The translations under genes were made by a program, and so were the position numbers. Below, in pieces: positions 1 to 62,159 of a stretch of DNA of 64,000 bases. The notes under the pieces are model-generated. The model did no database searches. It was not told the DNA's origin and saw only the letters and a list, made by a program, of their open reading frames with translations. Source of the DNA: Moniliella sp. 'wahieum' (lineage: Eukaryota); NCBI GenBank assembly GCA_003971905.1, contig RSEE01000016.1, forward strand, positions 806,001-870,000, given 5' to 3'. Every line of letters starts with the position of its first letter. Position 1 is the stretch's first letter.

Positions 1-45
1 TCACATGTCACAGTCACATGTCACAGTCACGCGTCACACAGCTGA
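1..45. repeat. 7-bp-register TCA-palindrome array
   Basis: TCA CATG TCA cag TCA CATG TCA cag TCA CGCG TCA. Confidence 0.85.
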
Positions 46-545
46 GAAAAGTGCGGACCCGCCGGCTTGGCAAAAGCTGAGGCATGTAGCACTACTAGAA
101 TACGTCCGAGCGATGGAGACACCGAGAATCTAAGAGTGGGGGTTTTGTCACTTATTCATGCTTACCGCTTAATCCTACCCGCATGGCATAGCACTTGATT
201 GAATACAGTACACATGTGATCTACTTCCAGTTGCCGAACGCGCCGCACGTACACACAAAAGCGAGTCTTTTGTTATAGTATGTCTGAGCTACCATTCACT
301 GAGTACTGATGTTTACTATGGTGATAATCGGTAACCTCTACCGACTCTTGTTCTATGTCGATCGCCAATGCCAAGGGGCCGGGAGGAGCGCTCTGGAGTG
401 GGGAGACGCAAAATTCATCATGGACTGAACCCTCTCCACACAACAGGCCCGGTTTTCTTATTTGCGAGCATACAAGACGCAGCGTTCCTTCTTCTTCTGG
501 CCCACCACCGCGTCTCTTCACTAATAACCGCAACCACTGTACTCC

Positions 546-2145
546 ATGCAACTATTCTCCAAGTTGCGAGGAACGTCTGAAAAGACCAGCGAAAAGACTG
601 AAAAGGCCAAAAAGCATGCCGATGATCCCATGGACGGTCCAGTGTCCAAAAGGGGGTATAAGAAGCTCGTGACGCCAGATGAGCTCAAAGCAATTACGCC
701 ATTTGCCTTTACTAACGATTCATCTAACGATCTCGGCCGTTCTTATTCTGATCGTCTGCCCTACATCGAGGGCTTCGAGGCCTTATTGCCTTCGAGGTTT
801 GCTTATGGTCCTTCTTCCGCATCCTCGCCCCGGGTATGCATTTCAGCCCCCCTCCCCCCCTTATTTTGGGGCCGTCACTGACTCGTGTTTCCAATAGCCA
901 TTGCCGCTGATACGGATGAGTTCAACGTCCGGCCAGCACCCTTTCTTGATCACACGCCTCAATGGCATAGCAGGGTACGCAAGGTTTTTCAGCCCTTGCT
1001 ATGGGACGGCAGCCTGCAGGCGACTTTTTTCTTTCTCATATCCGCTCGTGTCAACGTCCACACGTTCATTGAGCGCCGTAACAACACCTCCATTGCTGGT
1101 GCTGCCTTTCGCCGTCCTATTCGCATCTACTTCCCTCTTGTGATCGCCTTGGCTTGCGTGACCATCATGTCATCTCAGAATGCGTTTAGCACCGCGGAAT
1201 CTCTGGCTGGCGAAATGGAAAACACTTTTGGCGCCCCGGCGGCCAAATGGACAAGCGTACTCACCTTCTTGGACTCGTTCACCGCTTACGTCTTTGACAA
1301 TACGAACGCCATCCATACGGTTCCCATGGATTTCTTCCCGCCTCGCGGTGTACTCTGGACTGTTACTCGAAACTTTATTCAGACCTACTCGCTTTACCCA
1401 TTCGCCATTCTCCTTCCGTTCATTCGCGGATGGCCCAAGCTCTATTTTGGGTTATCCTTTGGCTTTGGTCCTGGTGGCTTGGGAACTTTTCTTACTACAC
1501 TCTGAGCGGGCTCTTTTTAGCTGAAGCGGTCGTAGTATACGATCTTGGTTCGCTCACTACCAAAAAGATGTTCAAAGTTGTGCCTGTTTGGACTATCCCG
1601 GTCTTTTGGCTATGTGTCGGAGTGACGCTCAAGTATGTGTTTGGTGATGCTTTCCCGGACCATCGAAACGAATGGGTCGCCCATGACGACTCGCAGACGG
1701 GGTTGCTCAAGACTGGTTTTAATCCCTCGGCAACTGGGTATCCTCGCATTGACGACTGGTTTGTTGCAGCAAATGCGATGGTCCTTTTGGAGATGTTCAG
1801 TTGGGCACGTTTTCTCTTCGGCAAGAACCCCGTTCTCCGTTTCCTAGGTCGGATATCATACTCTCTCTTCCTCGTCGAGGGTGCAATTTTCCAATCTCTT
1901 GGTCCCCTCATTTGGAAGCACATGGTGTCTTCTGGCCACCAGACCGGCTCAGCCGCAATTATTGCTGCTCAATTCTTTGCATGTGTCCCGCTCGCCATCG
2001 CTGTTGCCACGATCTTTCATATTTGGTCGAGATGCCCACCGACCGATTTGCCCGATGGGCCTACATTTGGTTACTAAGGACGATTGACGCATGCATATTA
2101 GGCCGTGCTTCTTTGCTTGCGCGGACCACTCGTACACGCACCTAA
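546..2145 (+). CDS. Acyltransferase family 3 (membrane O-acyltransferase-like), frameshifted in this assembly
   Basis: RLPYIEG(L)RG N-terminal motif (needs +1 base at ~772), FFFLISAR, and LRFLGRISYSLFLVEG motifs typical of Acyl_transf_3; multiple hydrophobic segments; GT..CTGAC..AG intron 834-897. The 3' end is uncertain (2087 or 2145). Confidence 0.75.
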
Positions 2146-2597: not shown

Positions 2598-2685
2598 CCA
2601 AGTAACACACGCAAGATGAACGGGTCGGTTTAGGTGTAGCGTTTCCCTGTCCCATCCTTGATCTCTGTCAATGATATGGATGCAG
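2598..2685 (+). repeat. Dispersed repeat family, copy A
   Basis: ccaagtaac..gcaagatgaacgg.tcggtttag..gtagcgtt..cctgtccca.cctt...ctctgtcaatgatatg; roughly 10 differences over ~84 nt versus copy C, counted by eye. Confidence 0.9.
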
Positions 2686-2858
2686 TACAGGGGCCGTAGT
2701 GAAAATGCGGAGAGGGGAAGAGTTGAATTTTTTGATGTGGCCGCGGCGAGTGTGACGGTGCGGTGTGAGGCCTCACATGCCTCACACCTGAGGCGGGCTT
2801 AGAGATCTGACGGTAAATCACATATGCTATTAGATGCACAGCTATCCCATGAAGTGTT

Positions 2859-3420
2859 TGTCACATGTCAGTACTCAGTACGTACTCAGTGTTATCCGTC
2901 CTTTGAGCAAGAACAATGCATCATAGCCATTCTATATTCTACCACACGGTTACGGATGAGTTATATTCCGGTTACCCATTTATTAACCGATTTTTGCATG
3001 TTAAAAGTCAGGACTCTTCCACGGTCCTTAGTAACTACTAGTGACTAGTTACTCATGCTGCCTGCTATCTGTCACACACAAGACTTCCTACGCGTCAGAT
3101 TATGTTGGGTTCCCCTCCCTATTCCATAGCCACAAAACAGCAAACAACACATTAAGCCGTTCCGCGGGCCCGAGGGGGGACAAAGAGCCCATTCTTCAGT
3201 TGGCTCACCGGTCGCCCCCCTTGACCAAAACCATGGCCCGCCGTGAAGCAATTGAAGGGAGCTTCGCCCGAGTACGTCTGTGTATCCAACACATTCTGTG
3301 AGTTGTGAGTTGTGAGTACAGTAAAGTGTACTTAGTATACTGAGTACTGACAATTGGTGACTATGTGTCTCCAGGCCCCAGGTCAGAGCTTCCAAGCTTC
3401 AAGCTTCAAGCTTCACGCGT
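2859..3420. repeat. Cluster of 7-bp-register T[CG]A-palindrome arrays
   Basis: TCA CATG TCA GTAC TCA at 2861; TGA CTAG TTA at 3042; TGA GTAC TGA at ~3341; (CAAGCTT)x3 then CACGCGT at 3393-3420. Confidence 0.85.
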
Positions 3421-5312: not shown

Positions 5313-5456
5313 TGATCTCCTGGCGATTCCCCTGGCTCCTTAAGTGGGATTAGCGCTACCAAAAGCAGCACAAGTAAGATGAAGGGGTCGATTTAGGGGT
5401 AGCGTTTCTCTGTCTCAGCTTAAACTCTGTCAATGATGGTATGGATGCAGAATAGA
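5313..5456 (+). repeat. Dispersed repeat family, copy B
   Basis: tgatctcctggcgattcccctggctcctt ... aagatgaagggg tcgatttagg gtagcgttt ... ctctgtcaatgat..atggatgcag; aligns to copy A (3' part) and copy C (full length). Confidence 0.85.
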
Positions 5457-5639
5457 GATGATAGAGGATTTTATCTAAAGAGATGGAGTTGGGGCGTCAC
5501 ATGTCACATGTCACATGCACAGCGTCACAAAATCATGTCACTGCATGACGCGGACGTCGGGAAAACCATCACATCAGCGCAATGTCACACACACTGCGAT
5601 GCCATGTATTGTAGTCCTTTTGGCAGAGACCGTTGGGCA

Positions 5640-5710: not shown

Positions 5711-6161
5711 ATCCAGCGTATGGGTGATAAAACGTCTCCAGCGTGGAATGGTGGAACGGTGGAACACGGTGTGGTTACGGTGGCGACACGGTGGCCCAGC
5801 ACCCAGTCTATCGACATCCGCGCGACAGGCTGGGGCGAAGCCCCGCAGACCGGGCCGTAGGCCCACAGTAGTCTCTAGTAATATGTAATGCATAACTGCA
5901 TAACTGCAGAACTGACCATAGAGGTCAATGCACAGAAGAGCAGCTGTAGAGGATCACAAAATACTTTAACATACGCATTTTAGGAAGGATGAGGGCACCA
6001 AAAACGGAACAGAAGTTGGGTATCAAGATGGAAGGAGCGCCAGTATAGCCTGTTAGACTATACTAGTGTCCGTCATCACTGAGGAAAATCTGGAGAGATG
6101 GTGGCACAGGATACGATCGGCTATTAAGAGAGGCGGCAGCTCCCTCCCCCTCCCAAGCTAC

Positions 6162-7494: not shown

Positions 7495-8219
7495 ACCTTG
7501 GCGATGACGATGATAAGATATAATAACCACTAGCTAGGACTTTGCAAGAGACTCCATTTGTTAGCAAAACCAACCTGGATAGGGCGTGTGTTACTCAGCT
7601 TAAGAGGGCTTCATACCTTCAGGAGCGATGTTCGCCTGTAGCATGGAGCACAAGTCCTCAATTTCGGCTCAAGAGGTGGATCAATGGTAAAACTGGGGGG
7701 ACAGTCAGACCGATCATGGTGTAGGTTGGGCATGAGAAGGACGCTCATGAGGGACGTGCGGCAAAAGAGGGAAACTGTCGAGAGAGGTTTTGGCTGTGCC
7801 CTGCGTTAAAAACGGGCGCGAGGAACTGCAGGAGTTCACAGGCCCGGCAAGCAGATACAGCTAATATATTTTCTAGGAAAATCAGTAGTGCACTTTAATG
7901 TTAACAGTATGAAGCGAAAAGAGTCGGCTGGCACTTACTGTCGGCTGCATGGGGAAAACCACATATCATAATAATTCTGCCCCAACAGTTCGTAATTCAT
8001 CAGACACGATGCCCCTGGAGGGATTGTACTTTACCCAACTCGCGGAGTTGGGTGTTTATAGCTGTAGTGTTGGTCGTCAGCCAGGTTATTTCCCGATATA
8101 GCCTGCTGTTCATTATTCTCAGTGTCTCTTTTTGGTCTGTGCCGTTCCCGCGCATCATGCATAATCGACATAATCGATCGTCGATCTCATCACTTATAGG
8201 CGAAACATATGGGGAGACG

Positions 8220-8288: not shown

Positions 8289-8314
8289 CCAGGCAAAACT
8301 TAAGGTTTAATGTT

Positions 8315-8690
8315 CACTCATGCACCATGCATGAGCATGAGCGCTGTTGAACGTTGAGCCTGAGCCACAGGAGCCTTGTGACATGTGACATGTGAATGAA
8401 GTCGGAAAGCAAACCATCCAGGCGGCATAGTAGTCTGTTTCGGAGATTCCGAAGTCGATGATCAATGATCGATGATCTATCCTCCTTCCTCGGCTCCGGT
8501 TGCTAGTTACGCGTTACGCGTTAAGCTAGTTACTAGTTATGGCTTATTTACTCTCGTTCCACCCCCCCGCACTGTTTGTGACATGTGACATGTGACATGC
8601 GATTGGCGGGAGAGAGCGCTGCGGGTGCAGCAACAGTATCTTCGTGGTGAGCCAGTGAGACCACGTCTGAGGCCTGAGGGCCTGACCGGC
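8315..8690. repeat. Dense cluster of 7-bp-register palindrome arrays
   Basis: TGA ACGT TGA; (TGACATG)x2-3 at ~8379 and ~8579; TGA TCGA TGA at 8466; TTA CGCG TTA CGCG TTA AGCT..TTA CTAG TTA at 8507-8539; TGA GGCC TGA at ~8668. Confidence 0.9.
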
Positions 8691-9235: not shown

Positions 9236-9400
9236 TCAATATTCAATGCTCAGGCCCTGAGGCCCTGAAGCTGAGCAGTCACAGACTGACTAGTAACATG
9301 TGACAGTCTGTAGCAACGTCCTGAGCCATCCCTGCTATGGAGACTGCAAGGAATGTGAATGGCTGAGCGCTGAGCTCAGCGCTGAGGCTCAGCGCTGAGA
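9236..9400. repeat. Cluster of 7-bp-register palindrome arrays
   Basis: TCA ATAT TCA at 9236; TGA CTAG TAA CATG TGA at 9287; T[GC]A GCGC TGA x3 at 9364-9398. Confidence 0.9.
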
Positions 9401-11711: not shown

Positions 11712-13251
11712 GTTGGCAGCGATAAAAATAAGCGGAAGGGAAAGAAGAGAGGCGAGTGAAGTGTGGTCCAAGACGAGTAGAAGGGGTGCTTTGAATAGAG
11801 GCGATGGCATATCCCTCACCCCCACTTTTTATACGCATCTCTCGTGGAGTAGGTCGGTGTGGTGGATTCAATCACTTGCAACCATGGATGGAAGTCGGCA
11901 TCGTATTTTCCCATTCGGGCAGTTGCAGGCCCACACGTAAGAAGAAATGGAAATATCCTCACGTACACACATCATGTTCTAAACATGATTGGGTTCTGAC
12001 TCATCTGCCAGCCTCCCTCTCAACATGTTTGATCATGATAGCCAAAACATTGTCGGTACCGCATTCCAAAGAAGGTGGTGCAAGCCCTTTCACCGCAGCA
12101 ATCCCCAGTTGGGCGTGGGAGCCATCGTTTGCTAACCACAAAAACAAGAGATATATGACGTCGAAGTTGCGTTGCTGGGACAACAAGTGAAGCAGGTGAA
12201 TTGTCGGAAGCGAACGTGCCCACCAACCCTGGCACCTGTGAATACTTGGGGACGGGGTGATGGCCAAAAATTCAACAGGGCTACGTGGGGCTGTGGTCTC
12301 TGATCGAATAGGAATATGAGGCTGAGGTAAAGTGGAGCGCAAAAGATAGAAAGAAAGACAATATAATGGACGGCTTTTTAGGCGCCTGTGTACCCTCTTC
12401 TCAGAATGCTATAATGCCTGTTCTCCGCAGAAGTGATGAGAGACACGCGGTCGCGGATCGGACCCAAACCATAAGGTACGATGGTTCCTAGTAGTACTTC
12501 AACTCGGTTCAACGTCTTCAACCTCCAGTCGTTCACCGTTCACACGTATCTCACAGACGTCCCCAGTATTATTTCAGTGTATTGTGGGACTGAGAGTACT
12601 CGCTGAGTACGGAACTGAGTATTACTGAGAGGGTACCCCATACAAAGAAGGTTAGATCTTAGACAGAGGCAATCTGTGATCCATTAGCACGCATGTTAGG
12701 AAGTGGTGTAAAGCTTGAAGCTTGAAGTGTGGTGGAACAAAGTGGAGCAGTGGAGCGTATGTTTTGCTTATAATAGCAAAAAGAGTGTGTCCCGTCTTGC
12801 CTCGGTCGTTGTTATCGATCATCGTTGCCTATCTCCGTGATCTGCCCACGTGAAATTGATGCGCATCCACTGCAGCGATCAAGCTTCAAGACAGCGGAAC
12901 CGACAAAAGGGAGTGGGGGCCGGGAGGCTAGTCGGACCGATGATTTTAACGATGAACATAACGCGATATCTACTACTCAAGCTCATTACATACTGCTTCG
13001 GCTGCTTGAACAAGCAGAATGCGACAAGAACGCCAAGTACCAGGGACGCACTCAAGAACCGTTTTTCCCCTGGTTTTGACGACGCGAGGATACTACGGCA
13101 CCAAGACGGCGGGCAAGTTGTTTGCGCATTGGAAGGAGTTGGCTACTAAGTCTCAGTGGAAATGGTTCCTCGCTCGTATGTCAACCACGTTCCTCCGTGT
13201 CCACACGCGCTTCCTAGGGTACGGGACCGGATGGCGTGAGCCGGAGGGTCC

Positions 13252-13378
13252 TGATATCCTGGCGATCCCCTGGTTCCTTGACCTTAGTGGCGCTTCCAAG
13301 TAACCCCCGCAAGATGAACGGTTCGGTTTAGACGTAGCGTTCCCCCTGTCCCAGCCTTAAGCTCTGTCAATGATATGA
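13252..13378 (+). repeat. Dispersed repeat family, copy C
   Basis: tgatatcctggcgatcccctggttcctt ... ccaagtaacccccgcaagatgaacggttcggtttagacgtagcgttccccctgtcccagccttaagctctgtcaatgatatg. Confidence 0.9.
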
Positions 13379-13496
13379 ATTCAAAGTGAAGGGCATAGCC
13401 CGCAATAATTTTGGCCCTGACACTGCCCCACTGCGACGAAATTGCCTGGTGAGAGCTTGCAACGCAGGTAGGGTTGAAACGTTGAAAGAGTCGGTC

Positions 13497-13538: not shown

Positions 13539-13650
13539 CAACTCTTCTGGCCTTCTGGCTTAGATCAAGTGTAGTATCTGTTCTTAACAGTTTGACAATG
13601 TTACGCTGGGCACTGCCCGCTGTACTTGTCATTCCACTCTTTGTGATTTT
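13539..13650 (+). ncRNA. U2: U2 spliceosomal snRNA (5' ~110 nt; 3' stem-loops not recognisable, possibly a truncated copy)
   Basis: GGCCTTCTGGCTTAGATCAAGTGTAGTATCTGTTCTT matches U2 stem I and the branch-point recognition sequence GUAGUA; stem IIa TAACA/TGTTA with loop TGACA complementary to downstream TGTCA (stem IIc); Sm-like ACTCTTTG at 13636. Confidence 0.9.
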
Positions 13651-14182
13651 AATGATCCTGGTTACCCGCGACACGTGTCAGGACTCGCTTGATTAGGGCG
13701 AGATTTTCCTCTTCAAGGAATCTTCCTCGTCGAGGTGCTCTTCCTTTGACGCGAGAAGATCGGCTCTGGTGCTGCGAACCTCCATGGCGCACAGCTGGGG
13801 AAGATCGAGACCGGCGCCTGGCACTTCCTTTATGGTCATCAGCATCTCATGGATCTTGTTTGCGGATTCAAGTCGCGTCCGGTTTGGGATTTGCCCTCGG
13901 GTTGCGACCATGTTGTGGTTGTATACCGGGGGCGGGTTGTGGGTCTTTGGGGAAAGGGAAAATCGGGAGATTTGGTGATGGGGGGCGACCGGGAGGTGGC
14001 CTTGTGGGGTGGGGGACGGCAACCGGGAGGTGGCCTTGTGCGGTGGGGGACGGGCAACCGGGAGGTGGCCTTGGGGTGGAAGGGTGGGATAACTGTGGTG
14101 CTCAGGACTGGGGTTGGGGAGATCAGAGAGTCGTAGGCTCAGGGTGAGCTTCAGATTGTAACTCTAATGATCCTGGTTACCC
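13650..14182. mobile_element. 515-bp segment bracketed by an 18-bp direct repeat (possible insertion or TE remnant)
   Basis: TAATGATCCTGGTTACCC at 13650-13667 and 14165-14182; internal G-rich minisatellite; no recognisable transposase or reverse transcriptase motif. Confidence 0.4.
13989..14077 (+). repeat. 34-35 bp G-rich minisatellite, ~2.5 copies
   Basis: ccgggaggtggccttg starts at 13989, 14023 and 14058. Confidence 0.9.
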
Positions 14183-23659: not shown

Positions 23660-23851
23660 GGGCGCTGAGCCTCAGCCAGGCAGCGCGGGGGCGCTGAGGC
23701 CTCCTGAGGCCTGGGGCTCAGGTCGGCCTGAGAAAGGCGCTCGCTCAGCTCAGCGCTGAGCGGCTGTGGCTGAGGCTCAGCGCTTCACGCGCTAAGCCCT
23801 GGAATGCGAACGTTTCAAGTTGACACGAGGTGTTCGCGTTTTGAAATTTGA
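23660..23851. repeat. GCGC/GGCC-core palindrome array cluster between divergent genes
   Basis: Many ctgag/ctcag units; TCA GCGC TGA at ~23750; TGA AATT TGA at 23842. Confidence 0.8.
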
Positions 23852-24327
23852 CCCCGTCCCAACACCTGGCGGCAGAGCCGCGTCACGATCAATACGCCTG
23901 TTGATGACGTTGGGGTACTCGGAGCACACTTTGGATTGGCGACGACACAGGCAAGTGAGAAGTGCAACACGCCATCACCCCCGCCACCTCGAGGTTCGTC
24001 TGCAGCGCTGCCATCGCCTGACCCTTACTACTTCAATCGGCTGCGTGTGGTTTGCCCATACTGAATACTGGTCTCAGATCTCAGACTGATGAATGCTCCA
24101 CGTCCAGCGGGGCCAACTAGCAACTGAGCTTTTGAAACCAACTTGCCAACCAACTTGGCCGGCATCACCTGCATCACCGGCCGATCGTCCATCATCGATT
24201 ATCCCGCTCCACCGCAAGCCGCAGCAGGCTGTTGGCGTACCGCCACCATCATCCCTCCGCGCCGTTAACAGTCACCCTTTGCAGCCGTCCACCTTTTCCC
24301 ATCGCCAGCCAACAGCTAGGTCTGAGT

Positions 24328-28449: not shown

Positions 28450-29026
28450 CACCATCGACCATCAACGATCATCATCGATCATCATGCATCATGCTGGGGA
28501 GACATCTGTGACGCCCTGGAAGCTGGATTCAAGCTTCAAGGATGCATACCCCTCAGAGAGCTCGTGAGGCGATGCCGCGAAGAAAACGGTGCATTATGAG
28601 ACTGCCCGAAGTATCGGTTAAGCCAATAGGCGCGGCGATAAGAACACCGTGACGCCGTTTGACTTGGCAGGAGAATGATGCGAAGGATGACGTGCGGTGG
28701 AGCGTACTCGATGTGGAACACTGACGTTCTTGCATATCGAGACGATCTGAATGAAGCGTTGACGCGATTTTTTCAGGCGTCCTCGCGTCCTCTTGGATGA
28801 GCCTCATCGATCATCACCTGTGACATGTGACAGCGTGGGCGTCTTCAACACGTACATCCAACCCGAATGTTTATCGAGTTTATCAACGAGCCCTCGGGCG
28901 GAGGCCTGTGCCCGGCCTGGCTTTGGCCCTTCAAAAAGCTTCAAGCTTCAGTGAGCTTGCGGCTGTGGAGGATAGGATGCCCTCGTTACGCTGGGCCAAA
29001 CATCCGGTAAACGCGTAACGCGTAAA
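28450..29026. repeat. Cluster of 7-bp-register palindrome arrays
   Basis: TCA TCGA TCA then TCA TGCA TCA at 28472-28491; TCA AGCT TCA at ~28530 and ~28941; TGA CATG TGA at ~28821; TAA CGCG TAA at ~29016. Confidence 0.85.
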
Positions 29027-40974: not shown

Positions 40975-41380
40975 GGGGGAGGATATGGTGTTATTGGCTC
41001 GAGAAGCTCACAAGTCCGGCCCAAGCCTCCCCGTCCGGCTGCTTCAAGCCGAGGGTTAAGCGGGCTGAGCGCCTGAGCGCAGGCAACGGGCCTCCTCCAG
41101 ACGTCACGCTGCCAATATTCAATGTTCAATCCCTCAGCGCCTCAGCAACGATGGCGTCACAGGCGGACATGACAGGATGACGCAATCATCATTCCGCCCG
41201 GCGTGAAATTTGAAAGGGGATGCGCAAAGACGATGCATACGCATTGTTGGATCCAAAGACACTAGGATATAGTGCCTACTAGTTGATCATGATCGTGTGG
41301 GAGGCGAGCAAAGCAAGGGTCAGAATGGTGAGAGTGCAATCCGGGGGAAGGCAGCCGGAGGGGCAACAGGAAGGGGTGGG

Positions 41381-43614: not shown

Positions 43615-46600
43615 GGTGAACGTGGTGAACGTTGAACGTTGAACGAAGAGCTCGGCAGATGATAGTGTTTCTTTGTCCTTCTCTCAGTCTTTTCAGTTGT
43701 TCAAGTGCTGCTATATATGAATGCAGCAGTATATATATCAGAGGGGCTATAATGGGGACTACATCATGTTAGACTGATGTTGTGGGCGGACGCTTCATCT
43801 CGTAGCAAAGAGTCTTTGATATGCAATGCACGCGGCGATCAAGTTACAGCAACTGGCAATGTAGTAGTCTTAATGGATGAGAAGGTTTTGAGAGAATAAC
43901 TGTATAATAACTCGTTTGCACGTGCTGTGGTGAAGGGTTTTTCACGAGTGCCACGGTTTTTGGCACAGCAGAGCACAACAGAGTACTGACTGAGAGAGTA
44001 GTATAGCCTTGCCAGTACGTTGTTTCAGACTAGTAGTCACGAAGCAAATACTAATGATTAATGAGCCTGCCGTGCGTGATCTACAGATCTTGGCTTAAGA
44101 GTAGGAAGCACAGTATTAGCACTCACATGTCACACCCCCTACTATTATTAGTACGGATACGCTATTGGCGTAGATAGGATGTGGTTGCTGGCAAGACGCC
44201 AATGGTCTACTATTAGGTGGGGAACCTCTGTTAGATGCGATTGAGACACATAATCATATGACGTCTTCATAAAACGATGTGCCACACTTGTCAAGCGGCC
44301 AGTGGACTTCCTTGAACTTGAAGTAAAACGTTCAACGTTCACCCATAAAACAAGCTGTGCACATCTCCAAAATGGTCTGGTAATCGCCTTAGAAGAGGCT
44401 GTTTGGCGCCGCTATTCTGATGTATATCCGACAAAATGTTTGGTGATATGCACTGCGTTTTGTGTATATCTCAAACGGTGTCTGTTGGCATCTCACAATG
44501 CCTTCAGGTTCCACAGCGAAGTTTGACGATAACCAATTCGATCATTGTCGGGTCAATCGACAATCCCGCATCCCATCCATCTCTCGGACTCTCATTTCTG
44601 CTGATGCACTGATGATCGATGACATGTGACCTGTAACACCTTATGGGAGCTCTACTCTTTTCGTTGTATGCGGGAAAAATGCCCGAGGCTGATAAAATGG
44701 TTTTCAGTATGCCGCCCGCAAGACAAGCACGGTACTGATGAGACCTGGAGTCCAGATGGTCCTCGAGGGTGATGCAATCGCACTAGTGGTGGTGGTGGTG
44801 GTGGTGGTGGTGGGTCTAAGCCAACCAGCAACGCCTACAGAGGAACATCAAGCAGCGCACCAGGGGCTAAGCTGCGGAACAAGGAAAAACAGGAGAGAAA
44901 AACAACGGAACTCCTAGGCCTGAAGAGGAACTGAAGGGACATTGACCAAAGCACGAGCCACCTGATGGCTCAACAGGTACAGCACTTGGATTTGAGAGAG
45001 AGGCTTGAATCTTGAAGCTTGACGGAGGAAAGGCTATGTACGAGAGCTTGAAGCTTGAAGCTTTTGACGCTTGAAGCTTGAACGTCTTGAACAAAAAGTG
45101 TATCTCCGACGACGAAGCTCAGCGCTCATGCACTCACATGGCGCTCATGATTATCATGTGCCTATTTTGTGAGTACCTGATGCCGTGGGTGTCCAGCCAT
45201 GATGCAAGGTCATGCATGAACATCAAATACAGGAAGAGACCCTGTGTTACGCCCTGATGAGCAAGGAAGCGCATCATGCACATCATACAACATTCTCAGA
45301 TCTCATAATGGACCCTCCATGAGAATTGTGGTAATGCGATGATTTTGAGATGTGACATGTGGGATCTAGCAATTGGATCTGAGATCTGAGATACTGAGTA
45401 CGTACGGGCGTAGCACTGGCGTAGCAGGGCGTAGTAGCACGTTGAGGCTGTTGTGTTTGTGTGTGTTGTGACATGTGATGTGAACATGTAAATATGCAAC
45501 CAATGCATCATGCGATGCATGTGATGGATGTGATGTTTAGATCTCAGATCTCACATCTTTCCGAATCTCGCACTCACATCATTAGCACAGGTCACTTCAT
45601 TGGCATGTAAAATGATTAATGACGAAGGTACTGAAGACAGAAGGTTGAATGTTGAGGGGAGTATCATGTACCGCGTATCTCATTCTCAGGGCGATTGGCA
45701 GCCAGGGGGCTGATCGAGAGGGTCCGACATACTGATGGGTATACAAACACTCCAGGTAGAGAACCCGAACAGCGCAACGGTCTGGAGTGTGGCGCTAGAG
45801 CGTGGTACCCGGTACCGTGGCGTCGGTGATACGTGGGATGGTGTGGGGGATGCAGGCGATAAAAACGCAAGCATCATGCACATGCGTTATAGGGGGAGAG
45901 GGTGCCATCATATTAATCCCAATTCAGAAAGAAGGATGGGAGGTCGGCGTGTGGTGAAGCTTGAAGGGAAAGCGTGCCCCATATGATGGTGTGGAATCGT
46001 GTGTATTGGGATGCTGTGGCCGGTAGTACTATAATAGGTGTGTGCGATTACTTGCTAGTTATACAACAGGGCACTTGGAGCACAGAGAGACAGAGATATT
46101 CAATGCCCCACCTGACATGCCACATACACAGTTGCCGCAACTTCGCATCATGCACATGTGTGCACATCATGTTTCATGCATCTTTTGCTTCATGATGCCA
46201 TCCGTAATACTTCTCAGTACCTAATAGTAAACACATATAAACACGCCCTCAGGCCTCAGGCCTCACATCCTATATCAAGATCAACACATAAGACAATGGC
46301 AGTGCATTAACTAGTAAGAAGTGCAACAAAACTTGATCTGGCATGCTGCACACGGAGAGTTCATCCCCCCGACGGGGCCCCTACCGGCCCTATCCCCTCA
46401 AAATTGCCTTCTTGTGGCCGGTTATAACATTCTGGCGAAGAGAGATCTCGATCAACGGCAGAGTGGTCGCAAGTCTCACTAGTCACTATAGTCACTTTCG
46501 TCACTAGTCACTATAGTCACCTTCTGGCCACCCTTGTCCGCTTCCTCCCAACCGTTCTTGTGACTGTAACAGCCTCGGTCCTGTTGGCGTCCGTTCCGGC

Positions 46601-46860
46601 GCACGCGACCATGCCAGCACTGCAACACCGTGGCTGGTACAGGGTAGTGCCCCCAGTGCAGCATGTAATACAACAGAGTTTAATCCCATACAGATTCCGG
46701 CCCCTTGTCTGGGACACGAGCCAAACTGTAACGTTCACGCGTTGCCGTTTAACGTTTAACGTTTAACGTTTAACGTGAATCTTGAATGTTGAATGTCGTG
46801 AACGCGTGACGCGTGAAGCTTGAAGTTAAGCAGCACTGAGCCTGAGCGCTGAGGCGCATA
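43615..46860. repeat. Gene-free tract rich in 7-bp-register palindrome arrays
   Basis: ACGT core at 43626 and 46749; TTAA at 44055 and 45613; TCGA then CATG at 44613; AGCT at 45000-45090; GATC at 45380 and ~45545; GGCC at 46249; CTAG at 46476 and 46501; CGCG then AGCT at 46807; GCGC at ~46843. Confidence 0.9.
44786..44812 (+). repeat. (GTG)9 microsatellite
   Basis: Read directly. Confidence 0.95.
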
Positions 46861-47164
46861 TAGTTTTGCCAGTTACAGCCTCAGGCCCAAAAAGCCCGAC
46901 GGAACTAAATGTACTAAACCCCAACTGTTGTGCTAATCATTTTATCAAGTTTTTTTTGCAGTGGGACCCAGTGGCCTTCAACTGAAGGTGTGAATCACAT
47001 ATTCACACAGAATGTACGCCATTACTAGGTCTTTTATATATCTTGTAAAGCCGCCCTCGCCCCTGGAATCGCCATTCACCTCCCTCCCACCGTCCTTACC
47101 CGTTTTCAACGTTGGTTTCGCCACAGCTCATCGTCCTTTCTTCCATTCATTACTTCTTACGATC

Positions 47165-47632: not shown

Positions 47633-50600
47633 ACGCAAGATTTCCCCGTGTCAACCGCCGCAATGGAGGCGAGCGATGCATGCACCAATTTCGCCTTCCC
47701 CGACACACTCTTCGGGGTTTGCTTGTTTAATATCCCCACCCCGGTCCCTTATTCTTGTTACGGAAAGAACGGGTGTTTTTCCCTCATCCTCCGACACGCC
47801 GTTTTTGGTGTTCTGATTATATTCTGCATATGTTGCTCCCACCGATCTTCTATTTTTTCGCTCAGGTACTTTTCATATTTCTTTATTGTCCTCGTGCAAG
47901 CAACAACATGTACTGTGACCCTCTAAAACGGGCCCGAGTCATCATTGGGGGGAGAGACCATTATGTGATGATCGTCGAGCGCATGGTGTCTTGTAACTGA
48001 AGAAATCCAACAATGGCTCACAGATGTGTGGTTGAGGATAATTGTACGTTCAGCTATATTGCACTTCACGAACCATGTCCGGCTTAAAAGATCCCAAAGG
48101 GTCACCTCATATGGTGAACGCTCCAATGCCAATGGAGTCCACAGTAGTTACGCAACAGTTGATAGAGATCAGACTTCACGTATGATACGGGCTCACCTTT
48201 TTAGTGGAGCGCCTGATGCCTTTGACGATAAATCATGTCGTATTCATTATCATTTGAAAAGAAAAACTTAGCAGGGACACTCAAGAAACGCTGTGCCAAC
48301 CATACGAGCTTGCTCACCCGGCGTTTCTGACAGCTCACGCCATCCCAACCAGGAGACCATGGTGTTTTCCCACCAGATCGATGGAGTAGGGGGGCTTCCG
48401 CCCCATTCGTTGCTACACCGGATGCAGTGCCATTATTGGTAGATGTATACGAATGGCGTATCTCTCTTGAAACTCTTCTCTGCAAGTTCCTTCCAGCAGA
48501 GTTCAAACATCTTTTCATGACAGTATTGGTGGCGCATAGTTACCCACAGTGTGTTGTCATAGTCCAAGGTGGAAAACGGGCTTTGAGTGCGTCCGTGGAA
48601 CTTGGCGTTCTTGTCGCACATACGGCTCGCTCGAGCCCTAGATGCAGATCCTCTCCCCGCACTCCTCAGGCACTGATGAGACGATTCCTCGTGTATCAAC
48701 ACATTATTTGTAAGTAACGCACCCTTGCCCTCATTCGTCCCGAGTCTCACAAGATGTGTAACACTTCCATCCCTGATCCAATAAAAGCACCTTGGGGCCT
48801 CCCCCCTGAAGTCCTTTTACGCCTAGAGCTATTATCTCTCGTCGCGATTCCATACACTTCTTCCCCCACAACCGGTCCATTGAAATAGAACATGAAGGTA
48901 TCCCAAAGATGAAGCGCACAACTGAAAATGGGCTTCCCCATTGTCTCGTGCAGGGGAATGCTCCAAATCCTCTGGCGCCTACGCTACAGCCTTCCGATCT
49001 TAGAACGTTCGCTGAATCTCACTGTGATTAGTTAGCAACTCCCCCGTGTGGTCACGTACAATCTACCAGGCAAAAGAACACCCGGCGACCATCCCCACAA
49101 ATAGCCCACATCCTGCCCAACGTGCAGTGCTGATGGCCTGAACGGCCTGAACATTTCTTTCTCTCCTCTCCCTGTGCCGTCACGTGGTATGCCAGCCACT
49201 GGCCTCCACGCCCTTCACTTCTGACGTCTGACGTCTGAGAGAGATCTGACGCATGATGTTGCTCCCCAACCCCTCCACCTCACACCCACCTCACACCCCC
49301 ACCTCACACCGACTAGCACCCATTGGCCATTACACCAACAGGATGGCGACGATGGTCCCCTCCAATGCCGCTTCGTCTTCGCCGCCAATCCCTCTGCACC
49401 GGGAGGACCTCAGCGTCATCCTCCACAGTGCTAGCGCGCCTGATCCACTTCTGCGCCAATCGGCGTATGCCTGTCTTGCCTGGGCATCGGCCTCAGCCCG
49501 CATACCGACCCCTCTCGCCCTACCTGCCCCCTCCCTCTCCTCTAAATTTGGCCAGTCCTGAGAGTGCGGGTGCAGCTGCTGCAGCAGGCGCAGCAGGTGG
49601 CGCAAACGCTTCCCCTCTCACACTTCCCTCAGCCCCGGCGCACACCGTCTCCCTATCGTCAAGCCCGCCGATGACGCCTCCCAGAAGGAGATACCACCTC
49701 CACACCCAGCACGGACCGACCATCTCTTCTTGAGGCTTAAAAGCTTGAGCGCTGGACTCGGCACAGAGCGCTCGACGTGCTCAACGCTCACCTTTTTTGC
49801 CATGACTTCGGCTGTCCTCCGTTGAGGCACGCGCCTTTACCACACCTCACCACTTCGCATTTCACTAGTAACTCTTGATGGCTTCGAACTCCAAACTTCA
49901 ACCCATGATCCCTGTTACGCACTTCTCACTTGGGATTCCTCTGGTCATGGCGGCTTCCTTCAGGCCTTAACAGCGGCCGCATCTCAGAGTGAGGCTGCGC
50001 CAACGCGCGCAGCGCTGTGAATATCAGGCTCAATCAGCCTATCTGGGAACCCTTCTTTCCTTCCCATCGACTCGCAATGAACACTCTAAATTACCAATGT
50101 TTTCTTCTCCGACCGAGGATAGATGGGGCAGAAGGGCAGGTGTCGCACGCCGGCGCCATCGGCCATGGGCTATCGATTGGGCCAGGACACAGTGCATTAT
50201 CCGGCCACCGCAGTCACATTACGCACGCATCGACATCAACGTTCGATGAACAGGTTGAGCCTTGTTGGCTTTCCAACGTGTGCAACCTCCAATCTCCAAC
50301 ATCGTCCGATGGCTGATGGCCAGCAACTGCCGTTGCCGTCTGATGTTGGGCCGGACGAATAGGAAAGGTCACGTGCAAGCCCGGCGTGAGCGACCAGACG
50401 CGTTGAACATTTGACAATGCCATTTTTTCGATCCACAGGGGTTGCTGTGCGTCAGTGTCGCCATACGTCATGGTCACCGTGGGCACCTCAGGCAGGCCTC
50501 AGGCCTTAGGCTGGCCTCAGTGCCTCAGAGCATCCTCAGCGCTCCTCAGCGCCTCACTCTCAGTGCAGCCAGGTGTCACAATGTCAGCAGGTGTCAGCTC

Positions 50601-53490: not shown

Positions 53491-54708
53491 ATAACGCAGG
53501 GCGTTGGCGCAGGGCCGCGTTGGCCCATGCACCCTCGCCGCTATCGGGGTACTACATAGGTGTGGACGCCCTCGTCACGCGTGTCATGTGATACGAGATG
53601 CGTGACATGTGACATGCGTGGTGCCTGCTGGCTGTACGAACGGGTGACCGGTGATTGGCTTGTCGCTGGTGTGATCTGTGACACTGTGATCTCGTGACAT
53701 GCGCCATCCTGCATCCTACTCCTGTGGCCGACGTGGCGCCCCCATCGACCATCCATCTCTCCCTTGGCTTGGCAGTCCTGGGCAGGGAGGGCAAACATGG
53801 TGATCGGACTAGAGCTGCCCTTCAGCAGGGCAGCGCCAGGTAGCGTGCGGGACGATCGCACTACCGTGCTGCTCTGACGCCCTTTTCCTTTGCGCACACG
53901 GGCTCAAGAACATCGTCTACATGTGATGAAGAAACACGGAGGGGATCGACTTTGCCTCTCTCACTCGGGGCGCCCAGGAGAGGTGCACTCGTTCATTCCT
54001 GAAGCGACGGCTGGCGTTGCGAGCACACGTGCACTCACGTACTCAGGACACTCCGATCGACTGGTCCGTCCGCAGAAGGCCTGAGTTAGGCCTAACTGCT
54101 GAGCTCCTGATTCAGTTAACCCTTCTCCTGCACCGCACACTGCCCTTCTCCTCCGCAATCGGTTCGGGATCGACGATCTTTTAAAGCGCACATCTGGCCT
54201 GTGGTTGTGCTCTGTTGTGCCCTCGATAACTTTTACCGTGAGAGCTTGTCTTGATCGCAATCGGGTCGATGAGGCCGACAGATGATCGATGGAGAGCGGC
54301 CGCTCATTAATCATTCCCGCAACCTGAGGACACCCTGGGGTCGGAAAGGCCCCTGGGGGGGGGGTGTAACTTTTGTTGGTCCACTGGGAGAAAGAGCCTG
54401 TCCGCGCGTAAGAGCTATCATGCATCGTGCCAGTGACTGCGATCACACATCATGCATCACCCATGTTTCAAGCTTCAACTTCACCGCCGTCCCATCCAAC
54501 TCTCTTCCCTCCTCTCGACGGGCACCTCTGGATAGGATGGAATACGAATATCATTGCCTCCTGTGACTTGCCTTTCATAAAACCAACACTGTTGAGTTGG
54601 GGATAACCACTGTTGAAGCAGGTCGGTGAGATGAATCTCCTGTGTTGCTCATTACGACGAGTTAGGGATCCTGGGGCCTTACAATGGATGCGTGACGGTA
54701 GCGAACTG

Positions 54709-54721: not shown

Positions 54722-54725
54722 GATG

Positions 54726-54831
54726 TGCACTCGCCGGGATTCGAACCCGGGCAACAACTTTTGCTAGCTCACCGTGATGGAACCCCAAATGGAATGGGAA
54801 AGTTGCATCTTAACCACTTGATCACGAGTGC
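54726..54831 (-). tRNA. tRNA-Gly(CCC) with a 34-nt intron (54794-54761) after position 37
   Basis: Acceptor GCACTCG/CGAGTGC+A; D arm ATC-AAGTGGTTAA-GAT; anticodon stem CAACT/AGTTG with loop TT-CCC-A|A; T arm CCGGG-TTCGAAT-CCCGG. Confidence 0.93.
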
Positions 54832-58732: not shown

Positions 58733-58782
58733 TGTGCTGCCCTGTGCTGCCCTGTGCTGCCCTGTGCTGCCCTGTGCCGCCC
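58733..58782 (+). repeat. 10-bp tandem repeat (tgtgctgccc)x~5
   Basis: Read directly. Confidence 0.9.
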
Positions 58783-59277
58783 CGGCTGCCTGGCCCTGCC
58801 CGGCACGGAAGGAGCGCTCTTGTGGCAGCGTGCCCGCACGGGGGCTGTGCAGCCGCCGTCGTTGGGGGCAGCCGACTGGGGCCAGGGCTGGTGAGTCTCG
58901 AGTAGCGACTTGCCCCACCGGGCCTCCAGGAAGGAGGAGACAAGGCAACGCCCGCTGGCCGTTTCCTTTTTTTTCTCCCCCCTCGCCACCACCCGTCGCC
59001 CACCCGTTCCCCCCACCTTTTCTTCTTCTTGTCTTCACCTCGTCGGATCCTTGATCAGTGTAGCTGGACTACACCTCGCCCGCACGTCTTTTCATCTCGT
59101 ATGTTCTGCCCTCTCGGCGCTCAGCCGGCTCAGTGCTCCCAAGTGTTCTGACGCCCCTCCCCCTCAGTCTTCGTATCCGCCCGCCCCCGTTGTCTCCTTT
59201 CCCCTTCGTCCAGCCGTCATTTCCCCATCATCTTTTACTGTGCTCACCTCCCTCTTCGCCACTCACGTCCATCCGTC

Positions 59278-60255
59278 ATGTCCCTCATCACGTCCCCCTC
59301 CGCGGCGCCGGCCGCGAGCCGCTCCGCGTCGCCTGCTTCCAGCATCTCCCCCAACTCCCCGACTGCCATCAAGCGCGAGCTCGATAACGACGTTACTTCC
59401 CAGGTCAACCTGACGCCGTCCAACAAGCGGACGAAGCCGATGAGCGCCGAGCGCATTGCCCGTCTCGAAGCGCGGCAGGCGCGCAACCGTGCTTCGGCCC
59501 AGGCCAGCCGGGACAAGAAGAAGGCCTTTTTCAACCGGATTGAGGTTGAACATCGCATGCTTTCCCAAGAGAAAATTGGCTGAAACAGCAGAATCAGCAC
59601 CTCTACTCGGCCGTGATGGACTTTGAGAAGCGCCTCCAGATGGCCGAGGGGGTGATTGATGTGCTGACGAACCAGACCAAAAAGACGCAAGGCATGACCT
59701 TGGCTCAGGCTCAGGATCTCGCCCGGTCGCATTTGCCTCCAGCCAGCCCGGAGGCCAATTCTCCCCCCGCGTCGAGCCTGGCCCACGCACCCGCTTCGTC
59801 CCGTGCCTTCCCTCCGTCATTGGGGTCGTTGCCGGCTCAGGGTCCACTTTCGGGTGCTGGCCCTCTCCTCACTCCGCCCTCGATCCCGGGAGTGAACCAG
59901 TACTCGGCGTTGGCTACTGGCTTCCCCTTCCCATCCGCTGTGCCCACCAGTGTAGCTCCCAAGGAACTTTCTACCCTCTCGCCTTCCAACCTGTCGCCCA
60001 CTCAGTCCATGTCCGCCGCGCCCGCTCAACTCGTCACCGGCTCCATCTCTCTCCTCCTCCATCTCTTCCTTGGGTGAGCAGACGGTCGTGGGCGACTGGG
60101 ACTTCCCCTCGTCGGAGAAGAAAGAAGGTGCCGAGAATCTGCTGGGGCAAGACACGGCGTCCCCTGCGTCGCTCGGCACGGGGTTTACCGTGTCGATGCG
60201 CAAGTTTCCCTTTGAGCCAGCCTTTGGTGCGCCTCTTGCGTCCGCCCTAGAGTAA
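59278..60255 (+). CDS. bZIP transcription factor, Hac1/Hxl1/Cib1-like basic region (frameshifted)
   Basis: RLEARQARNRASAQASRDKKKAFFNRIE basic region followed by a heptad segment; Ser/Pro-rich flanks; 3' end uncertain (60077 or 60255). Confidence 0.8.
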
Positions 60256-62159
60256 TGGGTGTGTACTTTTGTGGCACTCTTTCCCCCCACTTCCTGTGCG
60301 CCGGCCGCATGCCACCCTCCCCCCCCCCCCCCTGCTTGCCCCTGCGCACCCTCTATTTTTCCCTCTCTCCCTTTCTCTCCGCTGGCCGGATTAATGCGTT
60401 TGCCGTCATGTGGTTGTGTTCCTGCTGATTTGTTGCCTGGTTTTGGCCCTAATGCGTGGAGGATGTGTTGCCCAACCCTTGAGCTGCGATCGAGATGAAC
60501 GATGTTTTGTTGTATATACATGTTCATTTGGGCTATTGTGAATGAGGACGAGATCTACAGAGAGAGAGAAGATGATGGGTCGATTCCAAGAGAGAAGCCC
60601 GGTCGAGGCAGAATATAGGGAGATCGGACAGAACAGCACCAGGTGTGATGGAAGGTTGAAGGTTGAACGCACGTGGGAGGTAATAGCCTGATGGAGAAAT
60701 GGAGCAGTTCCGTATCCCAAATAGAGCCGCGAATCGGAGCTGCTACACTGAGCCTGGGGGCACTGGGCTGGGCCGTGGGGATTGGACCTACAAACATGGT
60801 CCGAACGGGGACGGGCCTCCCAGCCTGGCTTGCATCCACGCGGGTAGATGCATCTATGTGCCACGGGACACCGAACGCAAGCCAAGACCCATATGCGAAC
60901 GGACTCATAGCGAGCCCGCAAGAGGGGGAGAGCGATACCTTTTAAGCCCTGTTTTGCCCATGTGCTTATGGTTGAAAGAAGGGCTGGAGGGGGGACTGTA
61001 TCCGTCCGTACTCGACCCCGTATTATAGAGAGAGGTAGACAACCCACTCTGCCTCTCCTGCTTCGGATGTCCACTTGCGCCACGAAACGCGCCTGCAGGT
61101 CCACATGCGTAGACCGTCCGAATCCCGTTCTGGGATGTTGAGGCGAATGACGTGAATGACGGACCGGCAAGCGAGGTGGATTTCTGCGATATAGATGAGG
61201 ACGAGAGACGAGAACCAAACGCCGCCACTCACTCCCACGTGCGGACTTGGACGCACCAGCGGAATGCAGTGGGAAAGGGCTGCCAACAGCGTCTTTGGCC
61301 GTGCCGATGATGGCGACGATAGATGACCAATCTATGGCACGTGAGATGTGAGATGTGAGATGCCAATGATTAGTGAGCTCGATGAGCGTTCGCTCAGCCA
61401 CGCATCTCCGGCCACTGTGCAGGGACTTGAAAGCGTTGTGGGTTGCTCCTATTGTGTTGTCACTAGTCGCTACCATGGTCAACTGCCTTACGAGCAGGCC
61501 CCCAGGTGGCCAGGTAGGAGGGTATGGGGGGGGCAGTGCATGCAGTGATGGCCGCAATAGGGTGGCATCCGTTTTCTTTCTGGCCGCCGAGCCGGTGTGG
61601 ATGCGGGTGGGTGGCGACGTTGGCGACGCTGGAGATGGACATGTGGACAGGGCGGAGGGCTGCTGCTGCCTGGAGCAAACAGTGGGAGCAGGGTAGGGTT
61701 AGCGGATCGCCCATGGGATCTGGGCATTACCGTGACATGCATGACATGCATGCCGCCTTGAATGCTGGAAGGAGGTGCGACGTGGAAGGCTGCGCTGAAC
61801 GTGGCACGAGGCCAGGCAGGCCAGCGCGCTGAGCTTGGATCGTGACACGGCTGCCGTGCGTGGCCGTGCGGGGCGACGGCTGGTGCGATGGCCGGCGCAG
61901 CGGTGCAGCACACGTGGGCTGGCAGGTGGGCCTGTCACATGCACGTCACAGCGCACGGCGCCAGTTGCACGCTGCCGGAGTCGGCTGCTGGTGGGACTGG
62001 GTGCGGGATGCTCCGATCAGCGGTCGGCCCCACTGGCTGAGCTGTCTGCTGCGCGGCCTGCTCGCCTGCTATGCCTGGCCGGTGGGCTCGCGGTGCTGCG
62101 GGCCTTCGCCCCGCTGCGGTCCAGCGTCCCCACCATCCGCCTGCTCCTTCTCGCCTCAC

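Follow-up and report, generated by a model that had tools for sequence, protein, structure and literature searches.

The DNA of a 64-kb stretch of Moniliella sp. 'wahieum' (GenBank assembly GCA_003971905.1, contig RSEE01000016.1, positions 806,001 to 870,000; hereafter the window) contains many copies of a short motif in which two identical T-N-A triplets enclose a 4-nt palindrome. The full unit is a 12-mer, equivalent to a 7-nt insertion at a T-N-A site; five bases are repeated directly and two are inverted. The reading favoured here, with about an even chance of being correct, is that a cut-and-paste DNA transposon inserted and excised repeatedly and left the motifs as scars, or that a transposase-like nuclease sharing its geometry made them. 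The grammar of these products and its statistics are seen directly in the sequence. All results come from this one window (55.8% G+C) of a single genome sequence.

A preliminary description of the window reported a recurring intergenic pattern, T[CG]A-N4-T[CG]A, with a self-complementary core. The pattern is confirmed and very strong. The window has 138 T[CG]A-N4-T[CG]A sites, and the core is self-complementary in 70. Sites with identical flanks, a spacer of four and a palindromic core number 65, compared with a mean of 2.23 (maximum 6) in 100 dinucleotide-preserving shuffles. Sites with mixed flanks, in which TCA..TGA forms a perfect 10-bp palindrome, are not enriched (5 against 2.41 in the shuffles). 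Palindromic cores at other spacers are few: 7 observed against 8.6 shuffled for a spacer of two, 3 against 0.53 for six, and 1 against 0.14 for eight. The two comparisons suggested at the outset, palindromic with non-palindromic cores and a spacer of four with other spacers, thus both favour the observation. As reported, 15 of the 16 possible palindromic cores are present and TATA is absent; every example position was also found, those at 46749 and 8507 having the TTA flanks that had been allowed for. When triplet pairs around a 4-nt palindrome are ranked, only TCA/TCA (33/55), TGA/TGA (32/60) and TTA/TTA (7/14) stand out, and the next pair scores 7/22; the flanks are therefore direct repeats of T-N-A.

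The TSA-N4-TSA scaffold (S = C or G) holds as a pattern but is incomplete, since the real unit is a 12-mer with any central base in the triplet. It has the form X1X2-TNA-X2'X1'-X1X2-TNA, or the reverse complement TNA-Z1Z2-Z2'Z1'-TNA-Z1Z2; reading the first two bases of the repeat in reverse complement gives the two inverted bases. In 57 of the 65 TNA-pal4-TNA loci (pal4 = 4-nt palindrome), period-7 identity continues for at least 2 nt beyond the triplet on one side, for which the chance expectation is about 12%; the other eight lack 2-nt support on either side. The modal extension classes are exactly (2,0), to the left, with 13 loci and (0,2), to the right, with 10, so the mirror forms are about equally common. 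The 4-nt palindrome is built from the neighbouring dinucleotide, and nearly any palindrome can therefore occur. Because the core is made from flanking bases, only a copying mechanism explains the cores. This bears out the earlier proposal that the pattern reflects a generating process and neither one microsatellite nor one binding site. The process may also be active, as further proposed, given the excess of perfect over decayed copies.

The 12-mer was scored on nine constraints and compared with 20 shuffles. Perfect 12-mers number 85 against 0.3 in the shuffles, one-mismatch copies 68 against 8.9, and two-mismatch copies 232 against 119.5. The excesses in the three classes (about 85, 59 and 112) are similar, which suggests continuous production with decay, and not one old burst.

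A wider search used any five-base word followed by the reverse complement of its first two bases and the same word again. This class has 121 hits against 8.9 in shuffles, and T-N-A occupies positions 3-5 of the word in 85 of them (TGA 42, TCA 32, TAA 6, TTA 5). C or G is preferred as the central base (74 TSA against 11 TWA; W = A or T). The fair control for repeat variants is the unshuffled DNA itself, where each of the 15 remaining aNb centres has at most 8 hits; the quasi-palindromic centres ANT, CNG and GNC have 2, 3 and 1, compared with 85 for TNA. Match runs of length 5 are in excess at period 7 only (99, against 56, 55 and 51 at periods 5, 8 and 10). The inverted filler is present in 38 of these 99 runs, against 12.4 expected, and these 38 account for the excess. 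Its length is fixed at 2 nt: fillers of 1 nt are not enriched (22 and 23 against 22.8 expected), nor are those of 3 and 4 nt.

The origin of the filler is strongly asymmetric. At 85 of the 123 NNTNA-xx-NNTNA sites, the filler reverse-complements the first two bases; at 3 it does so for the last two alone, and at 35 it is something else. The end of the 5-mer that carries TNA is thus never the source of the inverted bases. The mirror forms being equally frequent, the event has its axis of symmetry at the N of TNA and extends past the triplet by 2 nt in either direction. A general rule of a 6-bp palindrome plus 1 nt was tried and rejected, as only A-NNNN-T palindromes with the spacer that makes TNA are enriched.

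Longer repeats with a 2-nt filler occur essentially only with TNA at positions 3-5. Besides the 84 to 85 five-nucleotide repeats, there are five 6-nt-repeat variants, seven 7-nt-repeat variants and one double palindrome. Counts of the 6- and 7-nt repeats against shuffles are overstated, because real DNA is richer in tandem repeats than shuffled DNA; against the other centre classes, TNA is central (NN-TNA-NN) in seven 7-nt-repeat products compared with 0-2 for each other class, and it occupies positions 3-5 in five 6-nt-repeat products compared with at most 2. Repeats of 4 nt are no commoner than expected (17 and 16 against 16.1); trimming past the overhang proposed below is therefore not seen, and never exceeds 4 nt. 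An extension of the inverted-filler signature to all short tandem duplications was rejected, as cases without TNA come close to expectation once maximal runs are conditioned on. In the double palindrome at 2875, TCA-GTAC-GTAC-TCA, each palindrome matches its own flank. Likewise, every new core in the mixed arrays matches its own outer flank (46802-46825, 2859-2892, 44601-44629 and 43615-43645).

Depletion from coding DNA had also been noted, and is evident when stop-free frames 110 or more codons long, in any of the reading frames, serve as a proxy for exons. The proxy is crude and covers 68.7% of the window. The 31% outside these frames holds 46 of the 54 five-nucleotide-repeat loci, a density of 2.30 per kb against 0.18 inside. 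The low density inside agrees with expectation, because insertions in exons would be lethal. The eight loci inside long frames lie in frames with no Pfam hit, and there is no locus between 29025 and 39097, the body of a long RasGAP gene. TSA triplets occupy 4.33% of positions outside frames (3.08% expected from base composition) and 2.71% inside (2.56% expected). The four symmetric pentamers N-TSA-N', which arise with each event, are the top over-represented NTNAN words in non-coding DNA, at 1.6-2.1 times expectation, with CTGAG/CTCAG in first place.

From these products we infer an element, hairpins and repair steps as follows. Under the transposon reading, integration would begin with a 7-nt staggered cut centred on T-N-A, converting a target NN-TNA-NN into a 7-bp target-site duplication; C or G in the middle and open non-coding DNA would be preferred. 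Excision would leave each flank as a flush, covalently closed hairpin. The host would open each hairpin 2 nt off its tip, a distance suggested by the filler of exactly 2 nt, to give a 4-nt palindromic 3' overhang consisting of two flank bases and two P nucleotides. Judging from the product spectrum, end joining would keep one overhang whole and trim the other to the duplex. The joined product, X1X2-TNA-X2'X1'-X1X2-TNA-Z1Z2 or its mirror, would be 7 nt longer than the original X1X2-TNA-Z1Z2. Trimming of 4 nt would yield the 12-mer, trimming of 3 or 2 nt the 6- and 7-nt-repeat forms, and no trimming the form TNA-pal4-pal4-TNA. Each scar would double the local TNA targets, and further hits or slippage could extend heptamer arrays. 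A new event at the inner flank would repeat the same core; one at the outer flank would start a new, flank-matched core and so produce a mixed array. Roughly calculated, 54 perfect loci in about 20 kb, each of which a change at any of some 11 positions would destroy, and 1,285 TNA sites would correspond to something like half an event for every TNA site during one unit of neutral divergence (one substitution per site).

Target bases are directly duplicated on both sides of the junction, as 5-, 6- or 7-nt repeats, at 63 loci. When directly repeated target bases are joined through bases that reverse-complement the flank beside them, this marks a closed hairpin that was opened off-centre and filled in; among established routes, only transposon integration followed by excision also duplicates the target. 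A 7-bp duplication is suggested by the symmetry of the event and by the seven TNA-centred 7-nt-repeat products. The filler asymmetry rejects a symmetric 5-bp duplication with hairpins at both ends and fits one of 7 bp. Three other geometries were tried and discarded. A fixed-end footprint, with a 3-bp TSA duplication and 2 nt from each inverted terminal repeat, conflicts with cores that follow the flank and take 15 forms; a 3-bp-duplication hairpin and hAT-type odd hairpins, both worked by hand, do not give the observed string.

A number of points weigh against a transposon. No transposase family was detected (Pfam, E <= 1e-5) in the 192 stop-free frames of at least 110 codons in the window, and inverted terminal repeats beside 3-bp or 7-bp direct repeats in the window amounted to chance-level pairs or the arrays themselves. 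Passages of PMC5751038 describe Ustilaginomycotina as compact and repeat-poor. Natural excision scars in rice are messy, with only 8 of 94 perfect and with deletions and filler DNA common (sections of PMC4423477), so the uniformity of the window scars is unusual; the count may cover only a tidy fraction, messy scars being invisible in a single genome. In addition, the scar chemistry does not fit the best-known hairpin formers.

Templated 7-nt insertions might instead be written at TNA by an enzyme that is host-resident or domesticated, or by a novel pathway of repair or replication, so that the motifs would not be relics of ordinary transposition; this is possible but doubtful. It can be likened to programmed hairpin breaks, but would act genome-wide. 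For such an enzyme or pathway, the rate per site would be roughly of the same order as that of base substitution. Template switching without any transposon is an unlikely explanation, although it gives TNA a direct role as a quasi-palindrome permitting fold-back pairing. A nick 2 nt 5' of TNA during repair or lagging-strand synthesis would displace a 5' flap; a 3' end that had copied X1X2-TNA would pair its TNA with that of the flap (T:A, an N/N mismatch, A:T), copy the last two bases of the flap (X2'X1') and be joined to it, for a 7-nt insertion in one step. The dominant 5-nt-repeat product would then arise without trimming, and the window, in which no transposon or transposase was seen, belongs to a lineage described as poor in mobile elements (in part of PMC5751038). 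However, the nick must fall exactly 2 nt from TNA on either strand, and the 3' end must be joined to the 5' end of its own pairing partner. To our knowledge, no enzyme nicks at exactly that distance, and ligases normally do not make such a join. The TNA-centred 7-nt-repeat products (7 against 0-2) and the double palindrome are not predicted, and ANT, CNG and GNC centres should work as well as TNA, yet are nearly absent.

Heptanucleotide microsatellites growing by slippage, with palindromic-core units favoured through hairpin folding, would explain why period-7 tandem repeats are common in the window, why some arrays reach 3 to 4.4 units and why a few non-palindromic TGA heptamer arrays (3297, 49220, 61341) exist. 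As the origin of the motif, slippage is very improbable and largely refuted: the modal product has only 1.7 units in a fixed phase, with a match run of exactly 5 nt that either begins 2 nt ahead of TNA or stops 2 nt past it, and slippage can neither make a first copy nor build a core from the flank. Non-templated period-7 runs of length 5 are at background (99 minus 38, against 51-56 at periods 5, 8 and 10), and the TCA..TGA palindromes, which would fold best, show only the 5 against 2.4 noted above. Slippage may add units to existing arrays. Selection for cis-regulatory or protein-binding sites, such as the TGA/TCA half-sites of a dimeric factor in promoters, would account for motifs that are confined to non-coding DNA and clustered (20 of 63 loci in 43.6-46.8 kb). 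It too has very little probability, as there are 15 different cores, dictated by neighbouring bases and not by a consensus; bZIP-type sites have inverted flanks, whereas those here are direct repeats, and copies decay freely. An assembly or sequencing artefact is scarcely credible given the dependence on compartment, the decayed one- and two-mismatch versions and a flank-dependent rule obeyed at 63 separate unique loci; we know of no error mode that inserts flank-templated 7-mers.

Known transposon families each share some features with the scars. Tc1/mariner footprints consist of TA, element-end bases and TA, and the middle can look palindromic because the element ends are inverted repeats. 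The order of duplication, few bases and duplication is the same in the window, but the family was rejected because its middle is fixed by the element ends, whereas the window uses 15 cores that are set by the flank in 57 of 65 loci. PIF/Harbinger elements have a target of TNA type, like the T-N-A-centred target of the scars. Their duplication is 3 bp (section of PMC12730594), and excision of mPing is mostly precise (excerpt of PMC4561436). A 3-bp duplication cannot put a second X1X2 past the scar, where the duplicated word has two to four further bases; this family was also rejected. V(D)J recombination and Transib-RAG produce flush flank hairpins that are opened off-centre, giving even P-nucleotide palindromes of typically 1-2 nt per end; this chemistry resembles that of the scars. 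Transib makes 5-bp duplications, and a symmetric 5-bp duplication is contradicted by the 85 to 3 origin of the filler. Transib is also reported missing from fungi (passage in PMC5751038). The mosquito Mutator-like element Muta1 excises mostly precisely, and hairpins go unmentioned in the sections of PMC5225508 that were available.

The footprints of Ac/Ds and other hAT elements are like the scars in three respects: the target duplication is kept, a short palindrome is templated by the flank, and the product is stereotyped and determined by the host. According to parts of PMC5873905, which cites the hairpin excision model of Coen et al., all Ac/Ds footprints in yeasts are short deletions or palindromic P-nucleotide insertions. 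In Candida albicans, two footprints (35 and 18) make up 53 of 128 clones (same source), so one host can yield a very stereotyped product. The scars are even-centred; in Ac/Ds, by contrast, the palindrome has at its centre the complement of the base that adjoins the element (same source). The even palindrome implies that the putative hairpin would be flush, and the odd-centred hAT form is not what the window contains: the same central base is kept in both TNA copies (65 same-flank sites against 5 mixed). The hAT duplication is 8 bp, or 7 bp in hAT7, while that proposed for the window is 7 bp and TNA-centred; the hAT transposase and dimerisation domains gave no Pfam hit in the 192 window frames. 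Basidiomycete transposons with 7-bp duplications include hAT7 in Puccinia (rust fungi) and Kyakuja in Laccaria, which come from Pucciniales and Agaricomycotina and not from Ustilaginomycotina (passages of PMC12730594). For hAT7, hAT chemistry predicts odd-centred palindromes; Kyakuja (a KDZ element with a 7-bp duplication, CA..TG termini and a KDZ transposase), as far as it is characterised in those passages, is comparable by the 7-bp length only. A 7-bp TNA-centred target combined with flush hairpins and opening at exactly 2 nt matches no family compared.

The density of about 2.3 scars per kb of non-coding DNA is far above that in the footprint literature examined, parts of papers included. 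In smut fungi, tandem repeats make up 4.2-7.0% of five genomes, 11.2% in Pseudozyma flocculosa and 2.6% in Malassezia globosa (PMC4824034); the words "footprint" and "palindrom" occur 0 times in that analysis. No description of the motif was found in the literature searched, which mostly excluded subscription papers, so an earlier description may exist. Nor did that literature confirm the fixed-sequence heptamer repeats mentioned at the outset for Ustilago maydis.

If the favoured reading is correct, perfect copies of a single stereotyped kind of scar (63 loci, all variants) span no less than 928 bp. Against the roughly 20 kb outside long frames this is about 4.6%, a share that decayed copies raise further. 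Such a density makes scars a main ingredient of the non-coding DNA. The intergenic DNA of a lineage described as transposon-poor would then be largely written by an element that leaves scars but few copies, and the over-representation of TSA triplets and N-TSA-N' pentamers would be explained by the same process, which would also provide a birth route for heptamer "microsatellites" and for dozens of 6-bp palindromes (A-NNNN-T). If no element exists, the mutational process is new; an enzyme or pathway of the kind considered above would continuously generate, and in large part make up, this lineage's non-coding DNA, and would be a new endogenous, genome-wide mutational signature. The grammar is a simple regular expression and can be run on any genome to date and map activity.

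The loci are as follows; none is assigned to a strand, and "minus strand" marks those whose sequence is written as read on that strand.

1..25: two 12-mers TCACATGTCACA (5-nt repeat plus 2 inverted nt) in a TCA-CATG / TCA-CAG / TCA-CGCG array at the window edge
298..309: isolated 12-mer ACTGA-GT-ACTGA
2771..2786 (minus strand): 7-nt-repeat variant TGTGAGG-CA-TGTGAGG, TNA-centred
2859..2892: compound array TCA-CATG-TCA-GTAC-TCA-GTACGTAC-TCA; the last part would be the sole product with both overhangs kept (two 4-nt palindromes between TCA copies)
3339..3350: 12-mer ACTGA-GT-ACTGA
3393..3415: array (TCA-AGCT) x3
5496..5517: array (TCA-CATG) x3
5891..5904: 6-nt-repeat variant CATAAC-TG-CATAAC, TAA centre
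8160..8175 (minus strand): 7-nt-repeat variant GATTATG-TC-GATTATG, TTA-centred
8346..8357: isolated 12-mer GTTGA-AC-GTTGA
8377..8395: array (TGA-CATG) x2.7
8466..8477: 12-mer TGA-TCGA-TGA-TC
8507..8539: TTA-flanked array TTA-CGCG-TTA-CGCG-TTA ... TTA-CTAG-TTA
8577..8599: array (TGA-CATG) x3.3
8668..8679: 12-mer TGA-GGCC-TGA-GG
9236..9247: isolated 12-mer TCA-ATAT-TCA-AT
9362..9399: GC-TGA-GCGC-TGA-GC, then mixed-flank TCA-GCGC-TGA copies with a 13-nt period
12652..12663: isolated 12-mer TTA-GATC-TTA-GA
12711..12727: array AAGCT-TGA-AGCT-TGA-AG
12879..12890: isolated 12-mer TCA-AGCT-TCA-AG
13473..13486: 6-nt-repeat variant GTTGAA-AC-GTTGAA
20312..20321: TGA-CCGG-TGA with 1 nt of flank support, probably a decayed copy
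23840..23851: isolated 12-mer TTTGA-AA-TTTGA
24072..24085: 14-mer TC-TCA-GATC-TCA-GA
24163..24178: 7-nt-repeat variant CATCACC-TG-CATCACC, TCA-centred
28472..28493: compound TCA-TCGA-TCA-TCA-TGCA-TCA-TG
28529..28540: 12-mer TCA-AGCT-TCA-AG
28804..28832: TCA-TCGA-TCA-TC and TG-TGA-CATG-TGA-CA
28869..28884 (minus strand): 7-nt-repeat variant GATAAAC-TC-GATAAAC, TAA-centred
28936..28950: AAGCT-TCA-AGCT-TCA
29010..29025: TAA-flanked AACGCG-TAA-CGCG-TAA
39097..39157: TCA-TCGA-TCA, array (TCA-AGCT) x2.9 and CT-TCA-AGCT-TCA, in that order
41065..41078 (minus strand): 6-nt-repeat variant GCTCAG-GC-GCTCAG
41133..41146 (minus strand): 6-nt-repeat variant GCTGAG-GC-GCTGAG
41204..41215: isolated 12-mer TGA-AATT-TGA-AA
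43615..43645: compound GGTGAAC-GT-GGTGAAC-GT-TGAAC-GT-TGAAC, one 7-nt-repeat product then two 5-nt-repeat products; start of the hotspot
44053..44064: 12-mer AATGA-TT-AATGA
44123..44134: isolated 12-mer TCA-CATG-TCA-CA
44327..44343: AACGT-TCA-ACGT-TCA-CC, inverted twin of the array at 43624-43640
44601..44629: compound CTGATG-CA-CTGATG, then GA-TGA-TCGA-TGA-CATG-TGA
45011..45092: three TGA-AGCT-TGA sites and the 7-nt-repeat variant CTTGAAC-GT-CTTGAAC
45117..45128: isolated 12-mer GCTCA-GC-GCTCA
45294..45305: isolated 12-mer TCTCA-GA-TCTCA
45376..45398: array GATC-TGA-GATC-TGA-GAT
45467..45478: isolated 12-mer TGTGA-CA-TGTGA
45539..45553: AGATC-TCA-GATC-TCA
45611..45622: isolated 12-mer AATGA-TT-AATGA
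45955..45966: isolated 12-mer TGA-AGCT-TGA-AG
46247..46265: array CC-(TCA-GGCC) x2-TCA
46476..46520: TCA-CTAG-TCA-CT twice, within a 25-nt duplicated block that also contains TCA-CTATAG-TCA
46746..46776: longest array, (TTA-ACGT) x4.4
46802..46825: compound ACGCG-TGA-CGCG-TGA-AGCT-TGA-AG; two cores, each fitting its own flank
46843..46852: TGA-GCGC-TGA with 1 nt of flank support per side
49137..49152: 7-nt-repeat variant CCTGAAC-GG-CCTGAAC, TGA-centred
53602..53616: G-TGA-CATG-TGA-CATG
53643..53654: isolated 12-mer GGTGA-CC-GGTGA
54304..54315: isolated 12-mer TCA-TTAA-TCA-TT
54448..54477: CA-TCA-TGCA-TCA, then TCA-AGCT-TCA-A

A hotspot at 43600-46900 holds 20 of the 63 loci in 3.2 kb; it sits in a stretch of about 7 kb (39.8-47 kb) of 47-48% G+C that is nearly without long frames. 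Some arrays with the same core occur as pairs in inverted orientation (43624-43640 with 44327-44343, 45376-45392 with 45541-45557, 5497-5515 with 8377-8395). The arrays of a pair face each other as inverted repeats 17-19 nt long, perfect or nearly so, across 148 to 2861 nt. As the window has just 4 sites each with ACGT and GATC cores, the pairing of these rare cores over a short range looks non-random; the model does not account for it.

Non-palindromic cores also occur, in four heptamer tandem repeats that contain TGA or TCA: TGTGAGT x3 (3297-3317), TCTGACG x2.7 (49220-49238), GTGAGAT x3.1 (61341-61362) and CATCAAT x2 (25991-26004). Three of them (3297, 49220 and 25991) have a run that begins 2 nt ahead of the triplet. 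These repeats may simply be 7-bp duplications that lack P nucleotides. At 23660-23790, 50486-50552 and 9252-9268 there are G+C-rich stretches of CTGAGG / CCTCAG words, together with mixed-flank palindromes such as GCTGAGGCTCAGC.

The genes of the window are broken into short exons. Pfam pieces represent a JmjC/cupin protein, a C2H2 zinc-finger protein, a syntaxin, an MFS transporter, RasGAP, a Zds_C protein and the splicing factor SF3A3. The closest named protein matches of the window fall in Ustilaginomycotina, which puts the fungus inside that group or close to it, and none in the protein collection is close; for the SF3A3 exon, the best named matches are Thecaphora frezii (43%) and Jaminaea rosea (40%), and one unnamed protein reaches 51%. 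A metagenome scan with this exon returned three loci at 32-33% identity; as a weak negative control, the 12-mer has 0 hits in the 17,014 bases of those loci.

A dispersed repeat of about 90-430 bp, the sole one in the window, occurs at 2598-2685, 5313-5450, 12997-13383 and 41722-42147 on the plus strand and at 48567-48618 on the minus strand. Its copies are 66-86% identical to each other, too diverged for a comparison of filled and empty sites. It has no credible Rfam match, only a weak SNORD38-like hit at 5413-5483 (E 0.46), and could be a shared promoter, a small-RNA element or an old mobile element. One copy ends about 160 nt upstream of a U2 spliceosomal RNA gene at 13540-13652 on the plus strand (Rfam RF00004, 70.8 bits). 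Rfam also identifies a tRNA gene at 54726-54831 on the minus strand (51.9 bits), whose 106-nt span implies an intron; it was not reported by ARAGORN in bacterial mode. Other tandem repeats are a 34-nt unit x2.6-3 at 13974-14076, a 10-nt unit TGTGCTGCCC x5.9 at 58733-58790, and a TGGGCT-like hexamer array x19 at 22572-22688, within a long frame.

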